The notes beneath the pieces were generated by a model that did not search any database, was not told where the DNA came from, and saw only the letters and a list, made by a program, of their open reading frames with translations. A stretch of DNA of 64,000 bases, taken from sequence record NC_018854.1. One strand, 5' to 3'. Position 1 is the stretch's first letter; every line of letters begins with the position of its first letter. Shown here piece by piece: positions 2,748-57,361 of this stretch. A program made the position numbers and the translations under genes. This stretch comes from Escherichia phage ECBP1.

Positions 2748-2797
2748 GGGTATTCTTTGTTTGGGGTTATAAACCCTGAGATAAAACCCTCAAGTTT

Positions 2798-2827
2798 GAC
2801 CTCCCTATTGAAGGGAGGTCTTTTTTT
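2798..2827 (+). terminator. intrinsic terminator
   Basis: GACCTCCC-tattgaa-GGGAGGTC followed by TTTTTTT. Confidence 0.7.
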
Positions 2828-2852
2828 GACTTAAGCATCCTGGAGCCAGGAA

Positions 2853-3041
2853 ATGTACAAAGAAATTGCATTCTTCTCATTCTTATTAGGTGGTTTAATA
2901 GGTGCAGGATTTGTAGCTATTTCTAATACCTACTTTGGTTCTACTCCAAATTCTGTAACGCAAACCCTCAAGCATGAATGTGAATTGAATATTCCTCGTA
3001 ATCAAAACTGTGTAATGCAGTTCGTACCGGAGAAGAAATGA
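2853..3041 (+). CDS. hypothetical small membrane protein
   Basis: 62-aa ORF; hydrophobic N-terminus FFSFLLGGLIGAGFVAI; stop overlaps next start. Confidence 0.4.
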   Translation: MYKEIAFFSFLLGGLIGAGFVAISNTYFGSTPNSVTQTLKHECELNIPRNQNCVMQFVPEKK

Positions 3042-3686: not shown

Positions 3687-4016
3687 ATGAAAACTTTATT
3701 TAAAGGTATTGCAGTAGCTGCACTGATAGCTTTGGCTCCAAATGCACAAGCTATTGAACCAGAACCAATTTTGGAAGGTGCTCAGGCTTATCTGGACAAC
3801 ACCCATGATGAGTTCGGACAAGGATTCTTCATGGGCAGTATGATCTCTTACATCGAGAACACAAATAACTGTGTTCCAGATGGTATGAAGTATTCAGACA
3901 TTCTACCTAAGATTGCCAAAGTAGTTATTTATGACTCTGCAATCCTCAAACTGAAGAATACATCTCAAATTGTTGTGTACTCAGTACACAAGGCGTATCC
4001 CTGCACTAAATCTTAA
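3687..4016 (+). CDS. secreted/periplasmic protein with cleavable signal peptide
   Basis: N-terminus MKTLFKGIAVAALIALAPNAQA has n/h/c regions and AxA cleavage motif. Confidence 0.5.
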   Translation: MKTLFKGIAVAALIALAPNAQAIEPEPILEGAQAYLDNTHDEFGQGFFMGSMISYIENTNNCVPDGMKYSDILPKIAKVVIYDSAILKLKNTSQIVVYSVHKAYPCTKS

Positions 4017-4050
4017 TCAGTAATCCCATTAGCTTTAGGAGAGTAAGTAA

Positions 4051-5103
4051 ATGGCAAGCATTGACTCCTTGACTGTATGTAATTCACGTCAAGCTCGTAA
4101 CTTTATTATTCGTGCCCTGAAAGCAGGTAACGTACCATTCCTGACTTCATCACCTGGCATGGGTAAATCTGCAATCATTCGTTCTATTGCAGAAGAATTT
4201 GGTATGAAGTTGATAGATCATCGTCTGTCTACTTCTGCCCCAGAAGATCTTTCTGGTCTACCATTCCGTAATGGTGACCGTGCAGAGTTTATTCCATTCG
4301 CTGATTTATTCCCTATTGAAGGGGATGAAGTACCAGAAGGTTATAATGGCTGGCTCCTGTTCCTTGATGAGTTCAACTCAGCTAAGAAAGAAGTAGTAGC
4401 TGCTGCATACAAACTAATTCTCGACCGTATGACTGGTCAGAAAAAACTTCATCCTAATGTGATGATTGTCTGTGCTGGTAACAAAGCTACTGACCGTGCC
4501 ATTGTTAATCCTCTGGGTACTGCAATGCAGTCTCGTGTGGTTCACTTTGAAATGGAACTTAACTTCGACATCTTTGTTGAAGATGTAATGATTCCTCAAC
4601 AATGGGATGAACGTCTGGTTGCATTTCTACATGCTAACCCAGGTTATCTGCATGACTTCGACCCAGCCCATAAGAACAAAACATTCTGTTGCCCTCGTAC
4701 TTGGGACTTTGTTAACAAAGACCTTAAGAATCAGCCGGAAGGTGCTCTTCCTGATGAAGATTCTATCTACTATGCAGGTCACGTTACTGCTGGTAAGGCT
4801 ACAGAATTTGTTCAGTTTACCCAGGTATATAATCGTATGATTACGATTGAGAAGGTAGTCAAAGACCCTATGGGTTGTGCACTACCAGAAGATAACAACC
4901 TGTGTTGGGCTACCGTTAACCATCTAGCTAACAAAACTACTGAAGAGAACTTCGCTGATGTTCTTCAGTACATCGAACGCTTTAAAACGTTCACCCATAA
5001 GATTCTGTACTTCCGTACAGTAGGCAGAACATTACCAGAACTTCAGGCTACTCCTGAATGGCGTAAGGCTGCTGCTAATATCTCTCGTTACATTCACGGA
5101 TAA
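4051..5103 (+). CDS. AAA+ ATPase, MoxR-like
   Basis: Walker A SSPGMGKS, Walker B LFLDEFN; 350 aa; immediately followed by vWA partner. Confidence 0.8.
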   Translation: MASIDSLTVCNSRQARNFIIRALKAGNVPFLTSSPGMGKSAIIRSIAEEFGMKLIDHRLSTSAPEDLSGLPFRNGDRAEFIPFADLFPIEGDEVPEGYNGWLLFLDEFNSAKKEVVAAAYKLILDRMTGQKKLHPNVMIVCAGNKATDRAIVNPLGTAMQSRVVHFEMELNFDIFVEDVMIPQQWDERLVAFLHANPGYLHDFDPAHKNKTFCCPRTWDFVNKDLKNQPEGALPDEDSIYYAGHVTAGKATEFVQFTQVYNRMITIEKVVKDPMGCALPEDNNLCWATVNHLANKTTEENFADVLQYIERFKTFTHKILYFRTVGRTLPELQATPEWRKAAANISRYIHG

Positions 5104-51041: not shown

Positions 51042-53312
51042 TTATAAGTTCATACCAAGAGCCGATGCTGGGTCTTGGCTAGGGTCATAAAATTGGGAAC
51101 TAAGAGAATAAGTCGGGTCTTGCTGTGCAGCTAAGTCACGTTCCTGTAAAGAGTTCCCGTTAGTCAAAGCGTTATATCCGACAGCAGCAGATATGTTGGG
51201 GGTAGTTTCACCTTCTTTAGTAGGTGTTGTCAACGCCTTAGTTATTTGAAGGTTCTGGTTTCCTTGAGATTGTGCTTTTTGTTTTTCCATATCACGAGCA
51301 TGTTTAGTACCAGATTCCTGTTCCAGATAATCCAGGTCTTTAAGGTCACCACTAGAAATAGCTTCTTTAGCCTTAGCATTATTGAGTGCAATCTTACTTT
51401 TCAACTCTTCATTCTCAAGCTGTGCTTTTTGAATTGCCAATTGCTTAAGCTGTTCTTCCATAGGGTCTGGTTGTGGTCGCCAGGTACGTAATTCATGAGC
51501 AAGGTCTGGCATACGCTTAAGTTCTGCAATTTTAGCTACGAGAGATAATGTAATAGTCTGGTCAACTGTATTACCTAACGTTTGAACCATGAAGCTCAAG
51601 TCCTGAGATTTCTGGTTATCAATTTCAGCAGTATTAATATCAACCTCAATATCGAAATTACCTTTAAGGTCTTCACGGTTAATTTCTACGTACTGTTCAT
51701 TGGTAATACGTACTACTTCCTTCTCAGATAAGAATACGGCATTCATTGCACAAATCTTAGTACCAATGTCTGCCATACCCTTAGCTAATCGACGAAGGAT
51801 TGCCATCTCACGTTTGGATGCTGCATCGAGTGCACCACGAATACCAGCAGCCACATCTCCATAAGCTGCACCAGTTACACCTCCAGAGAATGCTTTAACA
51901 CCAGTTAGTGCTTCTGCTTCCTGGTTCTGCATCTGAGTCATAACTATTGCCGACTGAGGTAACTCAGGGAACTTATGTTCCATAATGGCCTGACTAGGGT
52001 TGCCCTGCATTGGGTTATACTCATAGTCTTGTCCGTCATCATATCGACGTCGGTTCAGAGTATCTAACATCCCTTTAGGATAACCACGCTGCCCGTTTGC
52101 ACTTCGACCTAACAGGTCAATCATCCCACGCATAGTTGCACCAAGAATTGCTTGGTTATCTCCTAACAATTCTGCATCTGCTTCACCGTAGAGTTCACGT
52201 TTACGTGGCATGTATGGAACAACTACCAAAGGTAACTTACCATCAGGGAATGGGTTCTTCTCCATACGAATAAGAGTAGAACCAATCCAGGTAGCAACAA
52301 TCGGTTCCAGTGAACCATCATCATTAATGTCGTAAAATCCCCAGTATTCATAAGCGACTACTTTCTTACGTAGTGCATCTTTAAACTGGAAGTCACCAGG
52401 AGTTTTACTTTCATGGTCTGGGTCAGTCATAGGACTGGAACTTTCCCAGTCAATCTTATCCAAATTGTGATAACGGTCTTTGTTCTTCATGAGGTCTGCT
52501 TTGCACGTCTCAAACGAGATAACTGCATACAGAGCCTTGTCCAAATCACCATTACAACTCGGGTCAATAACTACGTTATTAGGATTAAGCATTTCAACAG
52601 TAGGTCTGTTAACCAGTGCCTTCTCTACCTCTACCTCAGTAACTCCAGTCTGGATTGCATAAGTAGCTTCTCCAGTTTCATTGAAGTAGTTAACAGCTTC
52701 CTTAATATCTTCCGGCATTGTTTCGTCATACTCACGGGGATTTTCTGCCTGAAGCTGTAAAGCCTGCTGAAGAATATCTGCTTGTTCCTGGTTCTCAATT
52801 GGATACAACTGGAAGACTGGTGTTTCTGTTTTAATCTTAACGGTCTTACGTTCCCAACCAATACGGGCAATACCAGTACCATCATCTACGACACTATGTA
52901 CGTAATCATCCACCAGTTTTACTTTATTAAGCTGGGTACGGAATTGGTAGTTAAGAACTAATTCATTCTGTCGTGCAGCTAACTCATCCTCAAAAGTAAC
53001 AGGGGTTACCTTAAAGAGTTTATTAGATGAGAGAAATGGTTCAGATAATGGTGCATAACGCCACTCTGCCTGACGGCGAACCAGTCTAGGTTGGACTTGT
53101 GAGCGTCCTTTAACCTTTGGGGGTTTAGCCTTGCCTTTGACTTCCATCAAGTCATTCCACTCACGAATCTGAGCCATGATTGCATCGTGAGCAGGTTTAG
53201 CTGATTCCAAATCACCCTTCAGTAATTGGATACTTGGTTCCTTCTTCCAGTCCGTTAACTTCTCTGATTGAGCCGGGTCTGGTAAAGGCTTAAAAGTGTC
53301 TTGGTGTTCCAT
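51042..53312 (-). CDS. portal protein (N4 gp59-like)
   Basis: 756 aa (N4 portal about 760 aa); position upstream of scaffold/capsid. Confidence 0.6.
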
Positions 53313-53314
53313 AG

Positions 53315-53821
53315 TTATTCCTGTTCAAAAAGTTTACGGTCAGCCTGAATCTGTTTACCCAACTCAATTAGTTGGCTGTCACGGAGTCTAACAGTTGCCC
53401 GGAGTTCTTCAACCAAACGTCTGCCTTCTTCAAGACTGTTGTCGAGTCTGGCTGCATGGCTTGCAAGACTTCTGCACTCAAAGGTTCCGGCTTCGGCTTG
53501 ACGTTTATATACCGATGCTCGTCTTTCAGACTGTTGCATCCGGCTGTCATAATCACTGCTAACGCGAGCAAGCTCGCTTGCGTAATTACTCTCAGCCGTC
53601 TGCAACCGGGAAGTGAGTAACCCGACTTCGTAACTATGGTTTCTTTGGAGAGCATTGTATTTGTCCTGTAATTTTTGTAGTGCCTTCTGATCTTCAACCT
53701 TTTGGGCATCCCACTTCTTTTGAACAGTAGACTGTCCATTGGAATTACCCCAAAAGTAAATGGTGGCCCCGAGGACCACCACCAGAAGATAAGGCCAACC
53801 TTTAGAGATTAGCATCTTCAT
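53315..53821 (-). CDS. i-spanin (Rz-like)
   Basis: N-terminal TM '[16 protein letters not shown]' then coiled-coil periplasmic domain; start taken at internal Met. Confidence 0.55.
53368..53655 (-). CDS. o-spanin (Rz1-like lipoprotein) nested in +1 frame of i-spanin gene
   Basis: Signal peptide + lipobox-like '[12 protein letters not shown]' then Pro-rich mature region; fully embedded in i-spanin ORF. Confidence 0.45.
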   Translation of the reverse strand: MLSKETIVTKSGYSLPGCRRLRVITQASLLALAVIMTAGCNSLKDEHRYINVKPKPEPLSAEVLQAMQPDSTTVLKKADVWLKNSGQLLDSVTAN

Positions 53822-54437
53822 TACATGCCTCCAGTGGCACATTGCCTATTCGGTTAGCTACCCAACCATACGTAAAGTCTGGCATGTTTAATGAGGTGTA
53901 GTGGTTAAGTTGTTTAGCATCAAGTAACTTAATCATTACCTGACATGCTGCAACTTTGCCTCGTTTTTTCTGTAATGCTTTATATGCATTAACAGTACTT
54001 GTACCGACTTTACCATCAACCTGTATTTTAGGGTAGTCTTTGCCATCACGGGACATTTCATTAAGAGATTGCTGCAACCACTTAGCCGGACGGGTTACAC
54101 CCGTATTAACACCAGCATCTACCAGCTTATGTGTTACAGCAGGAGATATATCAGCGAAGGCTACGAAGTTAGGCTTAAGTACGTAATCATCAATGTATAT
54201 CTCAGCAGCCATCTCTTTAGATAAACCCTTCATAGAACCATCCCAGCCATACTCAGTAGCCAGAACTTCTTTGTGAGATTTAGCTACAGCTTGGGTAATA
54301 CCATGATTGGTTTCACCACCTGGGTCACGAGGATTATTTACATATCCCCCTTCCATATAAAACACTGCCCCCAGGATAGCAGCGACAACTCCTCCCACTG
54401 CACCACCTTTCGTAGCAAGTTTCTGTTTAGCTTTCAT
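53802..54437 (-). CDS. endolysin: GH108 N-acetylmuramidase with possible N-terminal SAR signal-anchor
   Basis: 'EGGYVNNPRDPGGETNHGIT' GH108 signature; Gly/Ala-rich weakly hydrophobic N-terminus 'KGGAVGGVVAAILGAVF'. Confidence 0.75.
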   Translation of the reverse strand: MKAKQKLATKGGAVGGVVAAILGAVFYMEGGYVNNPRDPGGETNHGITQAVAKSHKEVLATEYGWDGSMKGLSKEMAAEIYIDDYVLKPNFVAFADISPAVTHKLVDAGVNTGVTRPAKWLQQSLNEMSRDGKDYPKIQVDGKVGTSTVNAYKALQKKRGKVAACQVMIKLLDAKQLNHYTSLNMPDFTYGWVANRIGNVPLEACNEDANL

Positions 54438-54687
54438 GTGAATCTTCCTTTGATCGGAATCGTATTAATCTGCCTACAATATTTAAGGCAAACAGCGCGA
54501 TTGCAATATTGGAACCATGGGGAATATCTTCCAGGATGTGACGAGGTAATCCTGTCAGCATTGGTTGAATGATATCTATGGTAGAAAACATAATTAACCC
54601 GAGCGTACTAATCTGGATGGATGCCCACTTCCAGCATCTTTTCCAGTTAGGTACTAACTCTACTTTTCTTTTTAGCCTGCGAACCAT
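54427..54687 (-). CDS. putative holin (two TM segments)
   Basis: Hydrophobic 'WASIQISTLGLIMFSTIDII' and 'IAIALFALNIVGRLI'; adjacent to endolysin. Confidence 0.4.
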   Translation of the reverse strand: MVRRLKRKVELVPNWKRCWKWASIQISTLGLIMFSTIDIIQPMLTGLPRHILEDIPHGSNIAIALFALNIVGRLIRFRSKEDSHES

Positions 54688-55001
54688 GCGAATATCTCCC
54701 GTCTTGCAGCAGCCAATACACCAATAATTGCACCTGCCCCAGCCCACACCCACTTACCAAAAATTCCAGCACCAACAACTTTATGCTTAATGGTGATGAA
54801 CTCTTCAATAGTAGGTTCATTCTTAGCTAAGCTATCCTCCACATTTTTTAGTCTATTGCCTATGTCATTGATTGAATCCCGTAGTTCTACCAGAGTTTCC
54901 TCCAGCTTCTCACGATCCTGCCTGTCCCTTGTCTGGTTCTCAAACAGAGTCTTCAATCGTTCCTCCAGTCTGACTAGAAGCAGTTCACCTGATTCATTCA
55001 T
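54672..55001 (-). CDS. lysis-associated membrane protein (coiled-coil N-terminus, C-terminal TM)
   Basis: C-terminal 'VVGAGIFGKWVWAGAGAIIGVLAAA'; position at head of lysis cassette. Confidence 0.35.
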   Translation of the reverse strand: MNESGELLLVRLEERLKTLFENQTRDRQDREKLEETLVELRDSINDIGNRLKNVEDSLAKNEPTIEEFITIKHKVVGAGIFGKWVWAGAGAIIGVLAAARREIFAWFAG

Positions 55002-55211
55002 AAAATTACCGTAGTGATGTAGTTAGATTCCCCAACAGGGCCATATCATAAGATGACTCTTAGATAATACTTAGTATGATGGGATACATCCAGACATAGT
55101 GTCTGGTAGCAACCCATGGTGGATGGTATTCAGTTAGGTATGTTTAACATATCCGGGCAAGTAATTACCCTAACAGCAGTATCGGTTAGGGTAATGCAAA
55201 CAGTAACTCTA

Positions 55212-55237
55212 TATAAGAAAAGGCCCAAACTGGGCCT
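55212..55237 (-). terminator. minus-strand intrinsic terminator after tailspike gene
   Basis: AGGCCCA-aac-TGGGCCT with minus-strand T-run (TTTTCTT). Confidence 0.6.
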
Positions 55238-55246
55238 TAGTTTTAA

Positions 55247-57361
55247 TTAAATCAATCCGTAAACTGCATTGTGTATTACGACGCCCCCAACAACTGAAGA
55301 AACATTAAAATTAATTTCAGCTTTGTAGGCTCCTTGTGGAACGCAATCCACCAAAGCATAAAAGTTGAACGTGTTTACCACTGGGATGATATATCCTATG
55401 GAATCCGCAACAGCATTTCCTTGCTGGTCCAGGAATCTAATTGACGCCAGGGTGGTTGTTGTATTTTTAGCCCAAAAACCAAGCTGAAAATAACGACCCG
55501 GTTCACAATCAATGATTGTTTGAGTGAAGTTAGCTGCTGCATCTGCTGATGGTACAGATAAAACAAAAGAAGTTGTAAACATTAAATCGTTAGGAACATC
55601 GTTTGCTGTAGTAGCAGTGACAGCACCTGTTCCAGTTTGAGAGAGTGTCCAGTTAGATGTATTTCCAAACTGTCCTGAGCCATTGCTAATACTATTAATA
55701 TAAGGGCTTACAATGCTTCCTAGATTCCAGTTAGTTGTAATAAAGCCTGCACGAGGGAAGCACCCTCTAGACATTACTTTCTTGCTAGAGCCACCTATCA
55801 ACTGTCTTGTGGCAAATCCAGTAGCAATCGTTGTGTTACCGTAGAGGGGCAATGAGCAGTTATTTAAACTAACTACCCCGTCACCATTACTAGCAATAGG
55901 CACTGTACTGTAGCCTTCCGGAAGCAGAATAGTAGAATCTTTAATACTGAGGCGTGAGCTTCCACTCACAGTAAAGCCTACAAAGCTCTGCCCAGGTTGA
56001 TACTCAATATTACCGTTAGCAAATACTAGGGTAGCATTATCACTTAATGCCACTGCTGGATCGAAGTAGCCTGCCTTTTTACCTGCTGGTAATGAGCATG
56101 AATCAAAGATGAACTGCCCATTCTCAAAAGTAAATGGACCCCCATTATCAACCATCCAGCAGTGGTTGAATTTTATAACCTCACCAGTATTAGCCGGGGA
56201 ATTAAAGATTACAGAGTTAGTAAAACTGCGAGAAATAGTGCACTTATCAAATAGAATACGGTATGCATTATCTTTAAACTCAATACCTGCGGTAGATATA
56301 AACCCACAGTTAGATATACGTAATTCTGCTATCTCCCCTCCAGTACTACTACCCAAACACATCTTTCGAGTACCTTTACCTACAAAGGAAATACCTGTTA
56401 ATAGGGCAGTAGCATTAATGGCATCACGAGCTGTGTAATCCGTATTAGAGTTGATTATGGTTAAGTAATACTCTCCTGTTACACCTTCCAGTTCCGTAAG
56501 GGTACACTTATTAGCTCCTACTAAAGCCCCCTTAGCTACATCCAGTAAGATAGGTGTACTGATAGTCCCTGATGTAGGTACAAGACAATCGTAACCGGCA
56601 GAGTTTACCTTGTTAATGAATGGGGCAATATCCCCCGTACCAGTATAACCTGCATCATATACCGTAGCAGTACCTTCAAAGAACTTACGCTTCCAGACCA
56701 CACCTGCACCGGTGAAAGTTACAACTTCATCTACAGGAGTAGTATTAGGAACCGCAATCATAATACCCCCACCAACGGAAGAGCCTGAGTATGAATCTAG
56801 CATTACACTAGACCCTACTGTTGCTCCGACAGAAGCCAGGGCAGTTACGTCAGGTACACTACCAATTAAGGTCATACCATCCTGAGATGCCAACTGAGCA
56901 CGCAAATTAGGATCCGTTTGAGACTTCCAGTCCGTGTTGCCAACAGGGTTGGTCCCTTCAACAATAGTTACGGGTAGAGAACCTAAGTAGGTATAACCAA
57001 TACCATTATGCATCAAAAGCTCATTTCGAGTATTTACTACTAAGCCCGTAGTAAATGAATCAGATAAGCATACAAACTCTCTACGTGCAGCAGCCAGTTC
57101 ACCCAAATCAACTGTACCTGCTGAATGAACCAAGACTGCATGTTCACTGAGACTTACAGCAATGGTTCCTGCTGGAAGTACAGGCAATGAGTAAGCACGT
57201 TGAGTAGTCTTGTCATAAATGACTTTGTATCCACCCAAGTCTACTCCTACAGAAAAGTAGACCACTTCATTCTGCTTAATACCAAACTTACGGGCAATGG
57301 CTTGCTTGTTGGTAAGAATACCAGTGGAACCTTTACCGCCTTGACTGAACATCTCGTTCAT
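55247..57361 (-). CDS. tailspike/receptor-binding protein with predicted right-handed beta-helix (pectate-lyase-like)
   Basis: 704 aa; repetitive Gly/Asn/Thr/Ser-rich beta-strand pattern 'ISNCGFISTAGIEFKDNAYRILFDKCTISRSFTNSVIFN'. Confidence 0.5.
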   Translation of the reverse strand: MNEMFSQGGKGSTGILTNKQAIARKFGIKQNEVVYFSVGVDLGGYKVIYDKTTQRAYSLPVLPAGTIAVSLSEHAVLVHSAGTVDLGELAAARREFVCLSDSFTTGLVVNTRNELLMHNGIGYTYLGSLPVTIVEGTNPVGNTDWKSQTDPNLRAQLASQDGMTLIGSVPDVTALASVGATVGSSVMLDSYSGSSVGGGIMIAVPNTTPVDEVVTFTGAGVVWKRKFFEGTATVYDAGYTGTGDIAPFINKVNSAGYDCLVPTSGTISTPILLDVAKGALVGANKCTLTELEGVTGEYYLTIINSNTDYTARDAINATALLTGISFVGKGTRKMCLGSSTGGEIAELRISNCGFISTAGIEFKDNAYRILFDKCTISRSFTNSVIFNSPANTGEVIKFNHCWMVDNGGPFTFENGQFIFDSCSLPAGKKAGYFDPAVALSDNATLVFANGNIEYQPGQSFVGFTVSGSSRLSIKDSTILLPEGYSTVPIASNGDGVVSLNNCSLPLYGNTTIATGFATRQLIGGSSKKVMSRGCFPRAGFITTNWNLGSIVSPYINSISNGSGQFGNTSNWTLSQTGTGAVTATTANDVPNDLMFTTSFVLSVPSADAAANFTQTIIDCEPGRYFQLGFWAKNTTTTLASIRFLDQQGNAVADSIGYIIPVVNTFNFYALVDCVPQGAYKAEINFNVSSVVGGVVIHNAVYGLI

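Follow-up and report, generated by a model that had tools for sequence, protein, structure and literature searches.

Escherichia phage ECBP1 carries five open reading frames (ORFs) at positions 53315–55001 on the minus strand of the sequence analyzed here (NC_018854.1; a stretch of 64,000 nucleotides (nt), referred to as the window). They overlap or abut each other and are flanked by the tailspike and portal genes. The locus is very probably the late-gene lysis cassette of a Gamaleyavirus (G7C/Bp4-like, Schitoviridae, N4 family), orthologous gene-for-gene to gp63-gp62-gp61-gp60/gp60a of phage N4. It comprises, in this order, a probable pinholin, a protein with two transmembrane (TM) segments that by homology is an accessory lysis regulator, a probable signal-arrest-release (SAR) endolysin, and an inner-membrane spanin subunit (i-spanin) whose gene contains a second gene for an outer-membrane lipoprotein subunit (o-spanin). 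The embedded o-spanin is a real, conserved, dual-coding gene. Our analysis directly addressed how the genes are arranged, their homology and conservation, the constraint from dual coding, and the residue composition of SAR segment and lipobox.

Gene-for-gene orthology to the lysis cassette of phage N4

The experimentally dissected counterpart of the ECBP1 locus is the lysis cassette of phage N4, which belongs to the genus Enquatrovirus, whereas ECBP1 is a Gamaleyavirus. The protein encoded first (54672–55001, minus strand, 109 amino acids (aa)) is 69% identical to N4 gp63 (E = 1.6e-54) and the two-TM protein (54427–54687, minus strand, 86 aa) is 65% identical to gp62. The endolysin (53802–54437, minus strand, 211 aa) shares 70% identity with gp61 over residues 10–208 (E = 9e-111), the i-spanin (53315–53821, minus strand, 168 aa) 58% with gp60, and the mature part of the o-spanin (53368–53655, minus strand, 288 nt, precursor of 95 aa) 72% with gp60a. 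Across the five comparisons the E-values range from 1e-33 to 1e-110. Both phages share the five genes, their order and overlaps, and their site between the tailspike/fibre and portal genes, as well as the SAR segment, the EGGY motif, the gp63 “Receiver” stretch with its transmembrane domain (TMD), and a mature o-spanin of 56 residues. Thus, the lysis cassette that the original prediction, made from the sequence alone, had placed on the minus strand was recovered with all five of its ORFs, each with an ortholog in N4.

The gene order is the same in annotated relatives, and order and overlaps match those of N4, St11Ph5 and G7C. At the DNA level, Escherichia phages Bp4 and PD38 share 96.8% identity with the 2.4-kb region, which matched 102 phage records, nearly all from N4-like podoviruses in Gamaleyavirus or related groups. 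The start of the gp62-like gene overlaps the stop of the gp63-like gene, the endolysin start overlaps the 3′ end of the gp62-like gene by 11 nt, and the i-spanin start overlaps the 3′ end of the endolysin gene by 20 nt. Shine-Dalgarno sequences were recognizable by reading the sequence for four of the five starts: GGGAG 8 nt before the gp62-like ATG, AAGGAAG 6 nt before the endolysin start, GGAGG 6 nt before the i-spanin ATG, and AGGA 8 nt before the o-spanin ATG.

Each N4 gene has been assigned a role in lysis. The cloned gp60–63 cassette lyses E. coli in ∼25 min, and gp63 is a pinholin that complements an S21 pinholin defect but not a lambda S105 defect (10.1101/2025.11.12.688109). The gp61 protein, whose muramidase activity was described by Stojkovic & Rothman-Denes 2007 (as cited in 10.1101/2025.11.12.688109), is a SAR endolysin that complements endolysin defects together with either a large-hole holin or a pinholin, and is membrane-associated with slow leakage on its own (10.1101/2025.11.12.688109). 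In the same study gp62 was dispensable, showed weak holin activity with lethality that was only late and could be triggered by carbonyl cyanide m-chlorophenyl hydrazone (CCCP), and was termed a “lysis regulator”; gp60/gp60a fully complemented lambda Rz/Rz1 (10.1101/2025.11.12.688109). Rapid-lysis mutations of N4 add negative charge to the SAR domain of gp61 or fall into the Receiver stretch of gp63, e.g., T65I and T71A (10.1101/2025.11.12.688109).

The o-spanin is encoded within the i-spanin gene

The o-spanin start lies 166 nt (55 × 3 + 1) past the i-spanin start, so that the o-spanin ORF is read in the +1 frame and lies fully inside the i-spanin gene (53368–53655 within 53315–53821); the nested arrangement with a +1-frame lipoprotein ORF is thus as originally predicted. 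The +1 frame is free of stop codons for 146 codons within the 168-codon i-spanin gene, and the +2 frame for only 19. Permutation of the i-spanin codons gave an expected open +1 frame of 61.8 ± 20.2 codons (P = 0.002), and synonymous resampling one of 59.1 ± 17.9 codons (P = 0.001).

Conservation analysis covered ECBP1 and 19 relatives, including Gamaleyavirus members, N4, Klebsiella phage KP8, and phages of Achromobacter, Burkholderia, Erwinia, Stenotrophomonas, Xanthomonas, Pseudomonas, and Alcaligenes. A +1 ORF with a hydrophobic stretch, a lipobox and its Cys was found in all 20 sequences, and neither the embedded frame nor the Cys, whose conservation in relatives had been proposed as the check on this gene, was lost in any of them. 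The mature o-spanin spans 54–63 residues, 56 in most of the sequences as in mature N4 gp60a (10.1101/2025.11.12.688109), and shares the motif Y-I-N-V-K-P...L-Q-A-M-Q-P-D-S-T...L-L-D-S-V.

Moreover, the overlap leaves its mark on the i-spanin codons, as measured by the rate of differing codons at i-spanin positions with an identical amino acid. Within the part that also encodes the mature o-spanin (i-spanin codons 95–151) this rate is 0.24 among all representatives, compared to 0.54–0.56 outside the overlap, and 0.12 compared to 0.32–0.47 among Enquatrovirinae. Among close relatives none of 544 codons differ in codons 95–151, compared to a rate of 0.08–0.09 outside. Rates for the signal-peptide part (codons 56–94) are 0.55 for all representatives and 0.50 for Enquatrovirinae, i.e., unsuppressed, as expected for a loosely constrained signal sequence; among close relatives this part shows partial suppression (0.036).

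Start codon, signal sequence, and lipobox of the o-spanin

The o-spanin precursor consists of a 39-residue signal and a mature part of 56 residues that starts with C-N-S and contains VKPKPEP. An n-region of ∼25 aa with a net charge of +4 is followed by an h-region and the lipobox TAGC, in the context V-I-M-T-A-G-C; the predicted acylation site is the lipobox Cys, residue 40 of the precursor, encoded by the TGC codon at 53536–53538 on the minus strand. A second lipobox-like sequence, LPGC, is found in the n-region and lacks a preceding hydrophobic core.

Upstream of the Cys codon, ECBP1 offers only two canonical starts, an ATG at −39 (53655) and a TTG at −11. The −39 ATG is accompanied by AGGA in all 12 Gamaleyavirus-type sequences. 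A second ATG at −31 is present in 11 of these and in N4, and is replaced by ACG in ECBP1 alone (o-spanin codon 9, 53629–53631), a change that is silent for the i-spanin (TAT to TAC). If the phage is viable, the −39 ATG must therefore be sufficient. The TTG at −11 is found in most relatives; we rejected it as a start, as it is a Leu codon of the h-region and would leave an 11-residue signal without an n-region. N4, in contrast, has an ATG 15 codons before the Cys, where ECBP1 has no such Met near its h-region, and its lipobox reads IVGC instead of TAGC.

The lipobox consensus is [LVI][ASTVI][GAS]C, and working lipoboxes that deviate from it have been documented (PMC6139136). The T at position −3 of the ECBP1 lipobox is outside the [LVI] set; TAGC is nonetheless fixed in the genus. 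The original prediction had described both start codon and lipobox as non-ideal, which applies to the −3 residue, and also to the signal length, and not to the start, a normal ATG with AGGA. Under the Lol sorting rule, the Asn that follows the Cys, in place of an Asp, is compatible with outer-membrane targeting.

The i-spanin

The i-spanin matches phrog_6197 ‘Rz-like spanin’ with E = 7.8e-78. It has an N-terminal hydrophobic segment at residues 3–21 (TMD ∼8–25) followed by a long helical periplasmic domain. Its ATG is located at 53821, and position 53842, given previously, corresponds to another ATG further upstream in this frame. An alignment of 20 homologs showed one periplasmic Cys in the ECBP1 protein, Cys116 (53474–53476). 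Of 528 spanin systems, 507 have one or more periplasmic Cys residues available for an intermolecular disulfide (PMC6139136), as is the case for ECBP1 with its Cys116. Most of the homologs keep this residue. In six distant relatives it is replaced, with no additional Cys in the mature o-spanin either, which places part of the N4 spanin family in the small minority of spanins without periplasmic cysteines.

The arrangement resembles lambda Rz/Rz1: there too, the +1 frame of the i-spanin gene accommodates the entire o-spanin gene, a type II inner-membrane i-spanin extends a helical domain into the periplasm, and the mature o-spanin is short and proline-containing. In contrast to this architectural likeness, sequence similarity to the lambda proteins was not detectable, and the best Pfam match was only DUF2514 (E = 0.036). 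The ECBP1 pair also differs from lambda in having Cys116 as its single periplasmic Cys and no Cys in the mature o-spanin besides the lipidated one.

In several relatives, e.g., Bp4 (3898–4122 of the compared stretch), HK2 (2783–3007), and PD205 (2283–2507), only the last 74 i-spanin codons (225 nt) are annotated, labeled ‘Rz-like spanin’ or hypothetical, and the o-spanin is omitted; the full frame of 168 codons is open in all three. In Burkholderia phage HN01 (1989–2753 of the compared stretch) the i-spanin frame overruns the usual stop by ∼85 codons and enters the portal region, explained either by an artefact (of sequencing or a frameshift) or by a genuine fusion.

A GH108 muramidase with a probable SAR segment

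The endolysin matches Pfam Glyco_hydro_108 (E = 4.2e-20) and PG_binding_3 (E = 2.5e-08). Its N-terminus, MKAKQKLATK, has a net charge of +4 and is followed by GGAVGGVVAAILGAVFYM (residues 11–28; 54354–54407, minus strand), a segment of 18 uncharged residues with 50% Gly + Ala and a mean Kyte-Doolittle hydropathy of 1.87. This segment is less hydrophobic than that of N4 (2.48). It abuts E29-G-G-Y without a spacer (M28-E29-G30-G31-Y32). The 16 aligned N4-like endolysins, whose phages infect eleven host genera, all show the basic-then-hydrophobic layout; E29, G30 and G31 are invariant among them and align with the EGGY of Sen1395. The Glu of this motif is presumably the catalytic residue, as in the Pfam family PF05838. 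With the Pfam matches, the composition of GGAVGGVVAAILGAVFYM and 70% identity to N4 gp61, the protein is a probable SAR endolysin, in agreement with the GH108 muramidase with a Gly/Ala-rich N-terminus that had been proposed for this ORF.

The Pfam GH108 match begins at residue 24 and the alignment with Sen1395 extends from residue 23 onward, so that the last residues of the hydrophobic segment would correspond to the first helix of the catalytic domain. An AlphaFold2 model (predicted local distance difference test score, pLDDT, of 87.7) shows residues 12–29 as one helix. A membrane-inserted helix would then hold the catalytic Glu at the bilayer with the domain incomplete, and release would complete the fold, as for R21.

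Among structures in the PDB, the best sequence match is Sen1395 (6v3z, E = 3.6e-27), and a Foldseek search with the model returned TtsA/Sen1395 as best matches with TM-scores of 0.72–0.76 (target-normalized). TtsA and Sen1395 (PDB 6v40, 6v3z) and Brucella SagA (7dnp) have the same catalytic and PG_binding_3 fold and the EGGY motif as the ECBP1 enzyme. They differ in carrying a polar DEILGK at the position of the SAR segment and in lacking the C165/C205 pair. Each of the 16 aligned N4-like endolysins has both cysteines, while the Sen1395 alignment offers no Cys to match them; they may form a periplasmic disulfide.

In its logic, the ECBP1 enzyme resembles R21 of phage 21, the partner of S21 68, and P1 Lyz, which are Sec-exported enzymes with a weakly hydrophobic, Gly/Ala-rich N-terminal tether that are released upon depolarization by the pinholin, and N4 gp63 and gp61 complement S21 and R21 defects (10.1101/2025.11.12.688109). 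R21 and P1 Lyz have, however, a T4-lysozyme-like fold instead of GH108, and the fold match to P1 Lyz was non-significant (E = 3.4).

Probable pinholin and accessory regulator

The gp63-like protein has a coiled-coil-like N-terminal cytoplasmic half, the Receiver stretch PTIEEFITIKHK (residues 63–74, nt 54780–54815), and a C-terminal Gly/Ala-rich TMD (∼75–99) that includes its sole hydrophobic 19-mer (residues 80–98, 47% G + A). The Receiver stretch is identical in N4 gp63 and includes T65 and T71, the positions of N4 rapid-lysis mutations. Receiver and TMD are kept across 16 relatives, with PTIEEFITIKHKVVGAG...REIFAWFA conserved. In PHROGs, the protein matches phrog_5211 of unknown function. 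The gp62-like protein has two hydrophobic segments (22–40 and 59–77) and matches Pfam DUF7940 (E = 1.9e-14; 54.4 bits compared to a cut-off of 27) and phrog_1356 ‘holin’ (E = 1.7e-29). Because of the N4 homologies and the identical Receiver stretch, we consider the gp63-like protein a probable pinholin and assign the two-TM protein, by homology to gp62, as accessory lysis regulator. Both membrane proteins of the original prediction thus exist, with the difference that its “holin candidate” was the two-TM protein and the roles are effectively swapped when judged by N4 gp63 and gp62.

The S21 pinholin of phage 21 has two TMDs, the first of which is a SAR domain, whereas the gp63-like protein has one hydrophobic segment. 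It may work like S21 without belonging to the S21-type family, from which it is set apart by the number of TMDs.

Within the genus, residues 1–61 of the gp63-like protein (54819–55001) are mosaic, with 98–99% identity to Bp4 and St11Ph5 and ∼71% to G7C and Bas96, and residues 62–109 are nearly invariant. The gp62-like protein shows the same split (95% compared to 83%). Homologs of gp63 are widely labeled ‘tail length tape-measure protein’, e.g., in Bp4 (2436–2765 of the compared stretch) and in another relative (815–1147), a label that hardly fits a membrane protein of 109 aa and seems to have spread from record to record.

Two alternative starts were considered. A 108-aa isoform of the gp62-like protein, called by the ORF finder from a GTG at 54753, was rejected: it has no Shine-Dalgarno sequence and no independent support. 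Its upstream RTG is present in 11 relatives because it is forced by conserved Lys-Trp codons (AAR TGG) of the overlapping gp63 frame; stops interrupt the extension in Kuerle, Piffle and RiverRider, and the PHROGs alignment reaches only ∼6 residues into it. For the gp63-like protein, the position of the alternative start Met17 of N4 gp63 is occupied in ECBP1 by a TTG (codon 16) with GGAGGA 4 nt upstream. This dual-start motif is not conserved in the genus, as G7C and Bas96 have CTG with GAAGAG and Jgk1 has TTT; a dual start in ECBP1 itself is possible.

Surroundings of the cassette

The cassette is followed by the portal gene (51042–53312, 756 aa), whose ATG lies 2 nt past the i-spanin stop. 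On its other side is the tailspike gene (55247–57361, 704 aa). Directly past the tailspike stop and upstream of the cassette, a terminator scan detected a GC-rich palindromic hairpin (55220–55238) with T-runs on each strand; it scored as a terminator in both orientations and is a likely bidirectional intrinsic terminator, identified as a consensus match only. In Bp4, a 654-nt ORF on the opposite strand (orf14; 1685–2338 of the compared Bp4 stretch) lies between the tailspike gene and gp63; this ORF is missing in ECBP1, where a 245-nt intergenic region (55002–55246) takes its place. A search of positions 52500–56000 against Rfam gave no match, and a promoter scan found 5 candidates compared to 5.3 expected in shuffled sequence. 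Plus-strand antisense ORFs of 99, 82 and 74 aa had no PHROG match and were treated as spurious.

Alternative explanations

Could the locus instead be a canonical holin-endolysin system, with the gp62-like protein as a class II holin for endolysin release and no part in lysis for the gp63-like protein? The ‘holin’ label of phrog_1356, the annotation of relatives, where gp62 is named holin and gp63 tape-measure or hypothetical, the assignment of such proteins to class II holins by TMHMM predictions (PMC3915230), and the late, CCCP-triggerable lethality of N4 gp62 are in line with this. However, a 109-aa protein with a TMD cannot serve as a tape measure, and the endolysin has a membrane-targeting segment of its own, so that we regard a canonical system as quite unlikely. 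Still less probable is a role of this segment as cleavable Sec signal peptide, or as permanent anchor, in place of a SAR domain. Its layout of n-region and h-region would suit a signal peptide, and L22-G23-A24 can be read as a weak signal-peptidase site, but the segment runs into the invariant E29 without a spacer or c-region, and cleavage after A24 would cut into a domain that starts at residue 24 (GH108) or 23 (Sen1395). Moreover, the N4 ortholog is membrane-associated with a slow leak, and added negative charge accelerates its lysis, the opposite of a signal-peptide defect. The missing c-region, the loss of domain residues upon cleavage, and this charge effect together make a cleavable signal peptide unlikely.

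The least probable of the alternatives, and in our view extremely improbable, is that the embedded +1 ORF is an unexpressed by-product of the i-spanin codon composition. It would account for the lack of a match in the profile libraries, the distance between start and lipobox, and the absence of the ORF from the annotation of some close relatives. It is contradicted by the probability of a frame this long (P ≈ 0.001–0.002), by a lipobox Cys and an NVKP...LQAMQPDST...LLDSV motif that are kept from Escherichia to Xanthomonas, Pseudomonas and Alcaligenes phages, by synonymous suppression that is specific to the mature part, and by the N4 pair, which complements lambda Rz/Rz1.

Several points weigh against our interpretation of the locus as an N4-type lysis cassette. 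All functions are assigned by transfer from N4 at 58–72% identity, and the key N4 source (Awuah et al., 10.1101/2025.11.12.688109) is a bioRxiv preprint. G7C-type phages have been reported to lack the lysis inhibition of N4, so that the regulation may differ. For the o-spanin, searches of PHROGs, Pfam and NCBIfam gave no match, its signal is atypically long, and a T occupies position −3. NCBIfam returned for the endolysin only a sub-threshold ‘holin-associated N-acetylmuramidase’ (59 bits compared to a cut-off of 240).

Discussion

The N4-type cassette suggests the following course of lysis, in which topology, export, hole size, lipidation, and timing are deduced from homology with N4. Sec would export the endolysin, and its Gly/Ala-rich N-terminal SAR helix would tether the inactive enzyme to the inner membrane. 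Meanwhile, the gp63-like protein, anchored by its single C-terminal TMD, would accumulate in the inner membrane until triggering leads to small holes and collapse of the membrane potential. Depolarization would free the SAR helix, and the muramidase could then refold and degrade the peptidoglycan. After loss of the wall, the i-spanin in the inner membrane and the o-spanin as an outer-membrane lipoprotein would bridge the periplasm and disrupt the outer membrane. The two-TM gp62-like protein may act as accessory regulator or late back-up holin.

The mean hydropathy of the SAR segment is 1.87–1.89 in ECBP1 and G7C compared to 2.48 in N4. Because lysis inhibition differs between these phage types despite an identical Receiver stretch, the weaker anchor is a candidate cause: it could favor earlier release, a hypothesis based on two or three phenotyped phages. 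A broader proposal, that the differences from N4 reflect functional tuning and not drift, with a weaker SAR anchor leading to prompt lysis of G7C-type phages in place of the inhibition of N4 that lasts for hours, and the long o-spanin signal with its LPGC-containing n-region slowing or regulating export, appears doubtful.

Parts of the cassette have been described in relatives before. The G7C record (HQ259105) lists “gp60', embedded within ORF60; potential Rz/Rz1-like spanin”, and that of St11Ph5 (NC_070873) lists gp60.2/gp60.1 with identical lengths, including an o-spanin coding sequence of exactly 288 nt. G7C, St11Ph5 and Bas96 (PQ850623) have i-spanins 97–99% identical to that of ECBP1 and the same embedded ORF. 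Three different o-spanin starts were chosen in these records, giving 372, 288 and 264 nt, respectively; the 264-nt version of Bas96 uses the −31 ATG that is ACG in ECBP1. Furthermore, Kongari et al. 2018 (PMC6139136) listed an “N4” family of i-/o-spanins that includes Bp4, G7C, EC1-UPM, pSb-1, PhAPEC5, and PhAPEC7. The cassette is thus already known as an ordinary N4-type set of pinholin, SAR endolysin and embedded spanins, and what is new are minor corrections of annotation and two small leads.

The corrections concern many GenBank relatives, in which the i-spanin is truncated to its last 74 codons and the o-spanin is omitted, and many in which the pinholin is mislabeled as a tape measure and the accessory protein carries the “holin” label. 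The leads are the weaker SAR anchor and the o-spanin start variant, whose ATG to ACG change at −31 amounts to a natural experiment suggesting that the upstream ATG suffices; both would be cheap to test and bear on the timing of N4-type lysis.

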